A stretch of 64,000 nucleotides of DNA. Origin: Escherichia coli 042. Lineage in GTDB: Bacteria > Pseudomonadota > Gammaproteobacteria > Enterobacterales > Enterobacteriaceae. The stretch lies in assembly GCF_000027125.1 (NCBI RefSeq), contig NC_017626.1; one strand, written 5' to 3'. Below are positions 58,456-58,779 of this stretch, piece after piece. The notes under the pieces are model-generated. The model saw nothing but the letters and a program-made list of their open reading frames with translations, had not been told where the DNA came from and ran no database searches. Numbering within the stretch: position 1 is the first letter of the stretch; each line of letters opens with the position of its first letter. Made by a program: the position numbers and the translations under genes.

Positions 58456-58551
58456 ATGCTGGGTAATATGAATGTTTTTATGGCCGTACTGGGAATAATT
58501 TTATTTTCTGGTTTTCTGGCCGCGTATTTCAGCCACAAATGGGATGACTAA
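58456..58551 (+). CDS. mgtS: Small membrane protein MgtS (YneM), 31 aa
   Basis: Translation MLGNMNVFMAVLGIILFSGFLAAYFSHKWDD matches MgtS exactly; GGAGG RBS 6 nt upstream; below the 60-aa cutoff of the ORF track. Confidence 0.85.
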   Translation: MLGNMNVFMAVLGIILFSGFLAAYFSHKWDD

Positions 58552-58576
58552 TGAACGGAGATAATCCCTCACCTAA

Positions 58577-58618
58577 CCGGCCCCTTGTTACAGTTGTGTA
58601 CAAGGGGCCTGATTTTTA
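58577..58618 (+). terminator. Intrinsic terminator of mgtS
   Basis: ggcccctt…aaggggcc stem followed by tgattttt. Confidence 0.7.
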
Positions 58619-58624
58619 TGACGG

Positions 58625-58730
58625 CAAAAAAAACCGCCAGTAAACCGGCGGTGAATGCTTGCATGGATAGATTTGTGTTTTGCTTTTACGCTAACAGGCA
58701 TTTTCCTGCACTGATAACGGATCGTTGACA
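58625..58730 (-). ncRNA. mgrR: PhoP-dependent small RNA MgrR (ends approximate)
   Basis: PhoP box direct repeat upstream (58757..58779) and a strong terminator (accgcc…ggcggt plus 8 U) at 58625..58652 bracket a roughly 100-nt minus-strand transcript; position matches mgrR in K-12. The 5' end is inferred. Confidence 0.55.
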
Positions 58731-58756
58731 CAGTAGCATCAGTTTTCTCAATGAAT

Positions 58757-58779
58757 GTTAAACGGAGCTTAAACTCGGT
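58757..58779 (-). promoter_or_regulatory. PhoP box (direct repeat) for mgrR
   Basis: On the minus strand, aGTTTAA-gctcc-GTTTAAc matches the PhoP box (T/G)GTTTA-N5-(T/G)GTTTA. Confidence 0.6.

Follow-up and report, generated by a model that had tools for sequence, protein, structure and literature searches.

The region between ydeE and dgcZ in the stretch of Escherichia coli 042 DNA that we analysed (64,000 nt, hereafter the window) is almost certainly, to judge from sequence comparison, the E. coli low-Mg2+ locus mgtS-mgtT / mgrR, and none of our results speaks against this identification. This locus is already known as a well-studied part of the PhoQ/PhoP magnesium response, and our analysis adds little to knowledge of it; the useful outputs are practical. 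A sequence-only reading of the window had proposed a convergent pair of small genes under PhoP control, encoding the 31-residue protein MgtS and the small RNA MgrR. The convergent layout and the PhoP-type control were borne out by identity to K-12, an Rfam match, protein family HMMs and the literature, while the notion of a pair gave way to three genes, with mgtT as an annotated third gene that overlaps the mgtS stop. The refinements that we add are this missed gene, the register of the PhoP box upstream of mgrR, the nature of the Rfam model that matches the locus, and a private frameshift in mgtT. The locus also illustrates that small genes below ORF cut-offs, such as mgtS and mgtT, and sRNAs are recoverable from raw sequence.

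Identity of the locus and its genes

In K-12 MG1655, the order and strands of the genes are ydeE (+), mgtS (+), mgtT (+), mgrR (-) and dgcZ (-). Positions 58330-58800 of the window (471 nt) were matched in 5416 of 5426 complete E. coli genomes (best identity 99.8%), with mgtS, mgtT and dgcZ annotated beneath the matches, and over 12 kb the best identity among complete E. coli genomes was 99.7%. Pairwise alignment of this segment to K-12 MG1655 (471 vs 472 nt) revealed three differences: an A/G SNP at 58350, far upstream of mgtS; one G missing between 58625 and 58626; and C in place of T (U) at nt 4 of MgrR. The mgrR feature is absent from the RefSeq annotation of other strains (for example E2865), though it is annotated in K-12. 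The literature on the K-12 locus describes mgtS and mgrR as PhoQP-dependent and convergently transcribed.

The coding sequence of mgtS (58456..58551, +) specifies a 31-residue protein, MLGNMNVFMAVLGIILFSGFLAAYFSHKWDD, with a single hydrophobic helix. The exact match to MgtS that had been claimed for this ORF stood, as the protein is 100% identical to K-12 MgtS (YneM, b4599) and aligned over its full length (1-31) to both family HMMs, NCBIfam NF033842 (80.6 bits vs a cut-off of 35) and Pfam PF22865 (88.2 bits vs a cut-off of 27). Read from the sequence, MgtS consists of one hydrophobic transmembrane segment followed by a C-terminal (H/G)(K/R)W(D/N)D motif, which is kept in at least 49 loci, the window included. 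According to the literature, MgtS raises MgtA levels and intracellular Mg2+.

Upstream of mgtS we predict a PhoP box at 58355..58371 (+), AATTCA-GCCTT-CGTTTA, in which the distal half-site is weak and the proximal one strong. It lies 12 bp before the -10 element, which is of the extended type (TGcTAATAT, 58381..58389, +), and the predicted transcription start falls at approximately 58396-58398. This predicted promoter agrees with the mgtS 5' UTR of 58 nt that has been used experimentally, which corresponds to a +1 at approximately 58398 (bioRxiv 10.1101/2021.06.30.450655). A strict pattern search found the layout xxTTCA-N5-TGTTTA-N12-TAnTAT in at least 19 loci, and by eye it is present in most others; the design is kept among the Escherichia and Citrobacter groups and can be recognised elsewhere. 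The PhoP-dependent induction of MgtS at low Mg2+ and its stabilisation of MgtA are taken from the literature, and the PhoP-type promoter described here is a prediction.

On the opposite strand, the transcript of about 100 nt that the sequence-only reading had assigned to MgrR was placed by alignment to K-12 b4698 at 58626..58723 (-), where 97 of 98 nt are identical. The transcript ends given for the window are the K-12 ends carried over by this alignment, and the 98-nt RNA is delimited by the K-12 5' end and the MgrR terminator. Along it lie a 5' stem-loop (58719..58689, -), an A-rich/ARN stretch (58688..58671, -), the seed UAUCCAUGCAAGCA (58656..58669, -; nt 55-68), the terminator hairpin (58652..58633, -) and a U8 tail (58633..58626, -). 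The predicted fold (-25.9 kcal/mol, z = -2.9) and this layout of elements agree with published probing of MgrR, which has been described as a 98-nt, Hfq-dependent class II sRNA that pairs with the eptB and ygdQ mRNAs via U55-A68, a seed that was defined experimentally (PMC6239178). Our predicted fold leaves the A-rich stretch single-stranded and places U8 after an 8-bp hairpin, the layout of class II; MgrR of the window has the Hfq-binding architecture of this class, with Hfq binding itself being predicted. In addition, pitA has been reported as a target of MgrR in Salmonella RIL-seq.

For the single-stranded core of MgrR, the best computed duplex with K-12 eptB joins MgrR nt 54-69 to eptB positions -8..+8, across the AUG, with an energy of -17.6 kcal/mol, and so falls on the published site. 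This energy is unexceptional compared with shuffled sequences (z = -1.4, 93/1000), so the pairing rests on the published experiments and the calculation illustrates it. When full-length MgrR was used instead of the core, the duplex obtained with eptB was long and meaningless, and no better than those of shuffles.

A scan of species-representative genomes with the MgrR seed and a U7 run returned at least 120 loci, and removal of chance matches in unrelated MAGs left approximately 96 or more distinct enterobacterial MgrR sequences. The invariance of the seed among these homologues follows from its use as the search pattern. The genera represented are Escherichia, Salmonella, Citrobacter, Enterobacter, Klebsiella, Raoultella, Kluyvera, Kosakonia, Leclercia, Lelliottia, Cronobacter-like bacteria and others. 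Applied to 94 homologues among the matches listed, RNAalifold recovered only the terminator, whose stem is conserved and whose loop-proximal pair covaries (AU in 66, GC in 17). As the 5' stem-loop diverges too far to be aligned by MAFFT, the 5' parts were folded separately; their sequences are wholly different between genera, and a stem-loop formed in 94 of 94 homologues among the matches listed (median -12.6 kcal/mol). Convergent mgtS lies 5-114 nt past the 3' end of MgrR in at least 49 loci, the window included. The gap is 5-7 nt in at least six loci, five of them labelled Kluyvera, and at this distance mgtS and mgrR share one hairpin. In most loci labelled Enterobacter among the matches listed, there was no mgtS within 700 nt of MgrR, so the back-to-back arrangement is common and not universal.

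Convergent terminators and the mgtT reading frame

The two terminators that had been described as head to head are both present and face each other, with about 7 nt between the T-run of one and the U-run of the other. The mgtS intrinsic terminator (58579..58619, +) lies within the mgtT ORF and consists of a 10-bp GC-rich stem followed by TGATTTTTAT. Its stem arms, GGCCCCTTGT and ACAAGGGGCC (58579-58588 and 58600-58609), are 100% complementary, the element folds at -25.3 kcal/mol (z = -3.0), and the combination of a perfect 10-bp stem with UGAUUUUUAU is that of an intrinsic terminator. It was not called by our pattern scanner, presumably because its 11-nt loop is over the scanner's limit. The MgrR terminator (58652..58626, -), which the sequence-only reading had called strong, has the sequence ACCGCCGGTTTACTGGCGGT followed by T8 and comprises 8 pairs (6 GC) with U8, likewise an intrinsic terminator. 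As each of the two has a U-run on one strand only, each is one-directional; on the minus strand, the stem of the mgtS terminator is followed by GGUUAGGUGAGGG, with no U-run. The idea that these terminators delimit the two units held with regard to their presence, but not with regard to the plus-strand coding content, since the mgtT ORF runs past the mgtS terminator into the MgrR terminator.

The mgtT coding sequence occupies 58551..58643 (+), and its ATG shares one base with the TAA of mgtS (TAATG). The ORF runs through the mgtS terminator hairpin and stops inside the MgrR terminator, so a full-length mgtT message requires read-through at the mgtS terminator; in K-12, mgtT overlaps mgrR by 29 nt. 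Ribosome profiling led to the discovery of mgtT, for which tagging provided confirmation (Weaver et al., preprint 10.1101/511675). MgtT is PhoQP-dependent, is encoded in an operon with mgtS and is not membrane-localised, and neither deletion nor overexpression of mgtT produced a phenotype (PMC11429745). The protein of the window matched Pfam PF23498 with 74.2 bits (cut-off 27), over profile positions 1-27 of 34 only. It has the same TAATG start as K-12 MgtT (b4775) and its first 25 residues are identical, whereas the C-termini differ: the window protein has 30 residues and ends ..DGKKNRQ, and the K-12 protein has 34 and ends ..DGEKKPPVNRR.

This difference arises from the deletion of a single G at 58625..58626, where K-12 reads GACGGCGAAAAAAAA (GACGGC[G]AAAAAAAA) and the window reads GACGGC-AAAAAAAA. 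The missing G lies directly 3' of the annotated U8 tail of MgrR, so that MgrR itself is unchanged by it. A 121-nt stretch carrying the deletion allele had an exact match in none of 5414 complete E. coli genomes (best match 99.2%, with one gap). The 30-residue MgtT of the window was absent among approximately 15 billion proteins, in which the 34-residue form was present with 151 cluster members, and the deletion allele was found in 0 metagenome contigs, compared with 15 for the K-12 allele, which served as the positive control. The missing G may be either a real private mutation or a sequencing or assembly error. MgtT of E. whittamii also has 30 residues and ends KKNRQ, which indicates that nature tolerates this frame. 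A private frameshift in mgtT fits a dispensable MgtT C-terminus.

Across genera, the length of the mgtT ORF ranges from 4 to 65 residues, and DNA-level conservation extends over the stretch just past mgtS (ATGAACGGAGATAATCC and the terminator stem). We consider it improbable, though worth stating, that the mgtT ORF matters as an act of translation and not as a protein. Were this the case, ribosomes reinitiating at TAATG would meet the mgtS terminator hairpin and modulate termination, which would set the level of plus-strand read-through into the MgrR terminator, antisense to the 3' end of MgrR. Cross-regulation between the two convergent PhoP-controlled genes would follow, and the private deletion would move the mgtT stop from beyond the MgrR hairpin to inside it.

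Promoter and transcript boundaries of mgrR

The K-12 +1 of MgrR maps to 58723, 7 nt downstream of an extended -10 element (TGcTACTGT, 58730..58738, -; -15..-7). A predicted PhoP box, CGTTTA-ACATT-CATTGA, precedes it at 58748..58764 (-; -41..-25) and starts 5 nt past the dgcZ stop. It is composed of the hexamer CGTTTA (58764..58759, -), the spacer ACATT and the hexamer CATTGA (58753..58748, -), and it is separated by the 12-nt spacer GAAAACTGATGC from the -10 hexamer TACTGT (58735..58730, -). When upstream regions were anchored on this box, the consensus cGTTTA-N5-caTTgA-N12 (ending TGn)-TAgnnT was obtained in 88 of 118 oriented loci among the matches listed, with TGn-TAgnnT conserved across these 88; the remaining loci are mostly chance matches outside the family, or Citrobacter loci with CATTGG. 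In other species the proximal hexamer reads CGTTGA, TGTTGA, CGTTAA or TATTTA, and in some loci (L098, L114) it is a perfect GGTTTA or CGTTTA; by sequence, all of these variants appear to be PhoP-like half-sites. The mapped K-12 start is consistent with initiation from this predicted PhoP-box promoter. Two further features of the promoter regions were considered and set aside. The sequence TTGAGA (58751..58746) was rejected as a sigma-70 -35 element, lying only 10 nt from the -10. The 9-mer TCATTGAGA common to the two promoter regions was judged a chance match, as its two copies are not in the same register with respect to the box and a sequence of 471 nt is expected to contain about one match of this kind.

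The sequence-only reading had placed the PhoP box elsewhere, as a direct repeat that overlaps the dgcZ stop. This repeat does exist: AGTTTA-AGCTC-CGTTTA spans 58775..58759 (-; -52..-36) and encloses the dgcZ stop TAA (58771..58769), and its outer hexamer, AGTTTA (58770..58775, -; -52..-47), lies 11 bp from the next hexamer, so that mgrR of E. coli has three hexamers in tandem at 11-bp spacing. Its register relative to the conserved element, however, was shifted. A strict search for xGTTTA-N5-xGTTTA across the loci found the repeat only in the window and in E. whittamii, among the matches listed, and this outcome prompted us to re-register the box. As a PhoP box is defined as (T/G)GTTTA-N5-(T/G)GTTTA at the -35 region, usually with no more than two mismatches (PMC7667037), we compared the two candidates with this definition and found two mismatches in the upstream repeat, at -52..-36, and four in the conserved box, at -41..-25. 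In the window, the loose pattern KGTTTA-N5-KGTTTA with up to two mismatches was found 24 times against 19.7 expected; as it is not enriched, it gives the box no support, and we used the exact core and conservation across species instead. The exact core GTTTA-N6-GTTTA was found three times in the window against 0.19 expected, a count reached in 0 of 100 shuffles.

It is conceivable, if unlikely, that in E. coli the upstream repeat is nevertheless the site through which PhoP controls mgrR, with PhoP bound one helical turn above the canonical place, over the dgcZ stop, and with CATTGA serving as no PhoP half-site at all. Such a reading would draw on the better consensus match of the upstream repeat, whose two mismatches both fall at the degenerate first position, on the rarity of its exact core by chance, on PhoP boxes above the -35 region documented at other promoters (PMC7667037), and on the 11-bp offset, which would leave PhoP on the same helix face. 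The comparison across species points the other way. The outer hexamer is not conserved beyond Escherichia: among the matches listed, the window and E. whittamii alone carry it in exact form, and the E. coli representative and E. albertii have AGTTTT in its place. No conservation across genera is seen in the 14 columns that precede the conserved box in the 88 loci. The proximal pair is kept in those same loci, always 12 bp away from the -10, the distance also found at mgtS, and in some species the proximal hexamer is itself a perfect half-site. Only the outer hexamer, which was found solely in Escherichia loci among the matches listed, overlaps the dgcZ stop. We place the conserved PhoP box of mgrR, as predicted from sequence, at 58748..58764, with the repeat of the sequence-only reading displaced upstream by one half-site (11 bp); the readings do not exclude each other, as three tandem hexamers could take more than one dimer. 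More generally, the best match to a consensus motif in a single genome can be one half-site off the evolutionarily conserved element.

Other readings concern the ends of the minus-strand transcript. On the strand of mgrR, dgcZ ends (stop at 58769..58771) 45 nt before the MgrR +1 with no terminator between them, and past this stop the minus strand offers no terminator-like site other than the MgrR terminator, so MgrR could also arise from dgcZ transcripts, the dgcZ mRNA ending at the MgrR terminator and MgrR forming its 3' UTR. Enterobacter-type loci show a similar arrangement, in which a different co-oriented ORF stops a few nt before the box. We regard this additional source as possible but rather doubtful, given that the conserved PhoP-type promoter suffices to explain MgrR and that our literature search, an article naming both left aside, surfaced no study linking dgcZ and MgrR; any such contribution would be additive and would leave the identity of the locus unaffected.

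A longer RNA is suggested by the Rfam comparison. The check that had been suggested, a covariance-model search for MgrR, succeeded in substance but not in name, as Rfam contains no family named MgrR and the locus was matched instead by RF01407, "STnc560 Hfq binding RNA", with 276.3 bits (gathering score 55, E = 3.6e-64, model positions 1-214). STnc560 is, we assume, the Salmonella name of mgrR. As our literature search found no paper in which "STnc560" and "MgrR" occur together, this equivalence rests on coordinates: the match spans 58545..58757, wholly encloses the K-12 mgrR coordinates, and overruns MgrR at both ends. If the minus-strand transcript were the RNA of approximately 214 nt that this model describes, it would start upstream of the K-12 +1, read through the MgrR terminator, and run antisense to mgtT and the 3' end of mgtS. 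The model does align from end to end with near-perfect identity, and it includes a second conserved hairpin at 58609..58579. Its first 34 positions, however, are the mgrR promoter itself (proximal PhoP half-site, TG and -10), and its last 80 or so positions correspond, in reverse complement, to the mgtS terminator and mgtS stop region, so the match proves homology of the locus and not a 214-nt transcript. The second hairpin is simply the mgtS terminator in reverse complement, followed on the minus strand by GGUUAGGUGAGGG where a U-run would be expected of a terminator, whereas the hairpin and U8 at 58652..58626 are a strong terminator; the K-12 annotation and the literature give 98 nt; and the high identity along the model stems from the whole locus being conserved in close relatives and does not mark transcript ends. 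We consider a 214-nt transcript very improbable and retain the 98-nt MgrR. The boundaries of the STnc560 model, which at 214 nt is far longer than the mapped K-12 MgrR, should not be read as those of the transcript.

A model of the locus and its relation to known systems

Together, these analyses show at the sequence level that the interval between ydeE and dgcZ holds two convergent transcription units, each with a predicted promoter in which a PhoP-type direct repeat takes the place of the -35 element, exactly 12 bp before an extended -10, and each with its own one-directional intrinsic terminator, the two terminators being approximately 7 nt apart. The plus-strand unit encodes MgtS (31 residues, one transmembrane helix) and contains the small mgtT ORF that overlaps the mgtS stop, and the minus-strand unit is the 98-nt sRNA MgrR. 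By extension from the K-12 literature, PhoQ would phosphorylate PhoP at low Mg2+ and both promoters would be turned on. MgtS would then bind the Mg2+ importer MgtA and raise its level, again as described for K-12. MgrR, presumably bound by Hfq at its U-tail and ARN motif, would pair with the eptB mRNA, across the start codon, and with the ygdQ mRNA, as reported in the literature, and repression of these targets would change LPS modification, as in K-12.

Compared with K-12, the window is the same at mgtS (b4599) in protein, promoter, RBS and terminator, the sole change being the distant SNP at 58350. The window and K-12 mgrR (b4698) share the seed, the ARN stretch, the terminator, the U8 tail and the position between mgtS/mgtT and dgcZ; they differ at nt 4, where the C of the window is also the Rfam consensus and K-12 has U, and at the base just past the U8 tail, which is changed by the 1-nt deletion. 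Well-known PhoP-activated promoters, among them mgtA, phoP P1 and mgrB, have a box at the -35 region, and 12 bp is the canonical distance from box to -10. The predicted mgtS and mgrR promoters share with these canonical promoters the direct hexamer repeat, the 5-nt spacer, the replacement of the -35 element by the box and the 12 bp to the -10. They depart from them in that each has one good and one degenerate half-site (AATTCA/CGTTTA at mgtS and CGTTTA/CATTGA at mgrR) and in that mgrR of Escherichia carries a further hexamer upstream, so that three lie in tandem.

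Conservation of mgtT and the shared hairpin

Across genera, conservation downstream of mgtS among the matches listed covers the first ~17 nt past its stop codon (ATGAACGGAGATAATCC) and the terminator stem. The mgtT ORF opened by this conserved stretch (58551..58643, + strand) varies from 4 to 65 codons among the matches listed; in roughly 20 of the species represented there, it is only 7-15 codons long. Conservation of the MgtT product in the same set of listed matches is limited to the N-terminal segment MNGDNP..RPL. Part of this conservation is no more than the codons spelled out by the terminator stem.

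At least six loci have no room for mgtT. In these loci (L013, L049, L055, L076, L121 and L122, five of which are labelled Kluyvera, with L055 being an Enterobacteriaceae isolate), the mgtS stop codon lies 5-7 nt from the U-tail of MgrR. Given this gap, the convergent mgtS and MgrR genes share one hairpin in these six loci, rather than ending at two back-to-back terminators.

Alignment of 58330-58800 to K-12 identified a single-G deletion at 58625/58626, 1 nt beyond the 3' end of MgrR. As this allele was found neither in 5414 complete E. coli genomes nor in metagenome contigs, the deletion is private to this strain or else an error in the assembly.

Position of MgrR relative to dgcZ

On the same strand, the dgcZ stop codon precedes the MgrR +1 by 45 nt (58723..58771, - strand), and we found no terminator between them. 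From this arrangement, the MgrR terminator is probably the end of the dgcZ mRNA, and an mRNA ending at that point would carry MgrR as its 3' UTR. In Enterobacter-type loci among the matches listed, a different co-oriented ORF likewise ends a few nucleotides short of the PhoP box. In E. coli E2865 (L002, NZ_AP018808.1), dgcZ is split by an IS1 insertion immediately upstream of the mgrR region; mgtS and mgtT are annotated in this RefSeq record, with no feature for mgrR.

Duplicated and probably misplaced copies

Enterobacteriaceae bacterium RIT691 (L028) contains two MgrR-like copies on the same contig with ~1.6 kb between them, one with a PhoP-type promoter; the other differs in its upstream region and is accompanied by a convergent mgtS. 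The mgtS-mgtT/mgrR locus is also present in a MAG labelled Caldithrix sp. (L030), where it encodes MgtS and MgtT with the same amino acid sequences as in K-12, and MgrR sequences of enterobacterial type occur in two MAGs labelled outside Enterobacteriaceae (L009, L018). The enterobacterial sequences in these three MAGs probably reflect contamination or mis-binning.

PhoP-box matches elsewhere in the window

A consensus and core motif search of the window recovered a perfect PhoP-box consensus, TGTTTA-GTCGC-TGTTTA, at 26517..26533 (- strand), and a second GTTTA-N6-GTTTA in the next intergenic region (25513..25529, + strand), oriented against the genes. The perfect box is followed 11 nt downstream by CATAAT and, ~275 nt downstream on the same strand, by the first gene of a chaperone-usher operon, a fimA-like gene for the major fimbrial subunit. 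The arrangement resembles a canonical PhoP-activated promoter.
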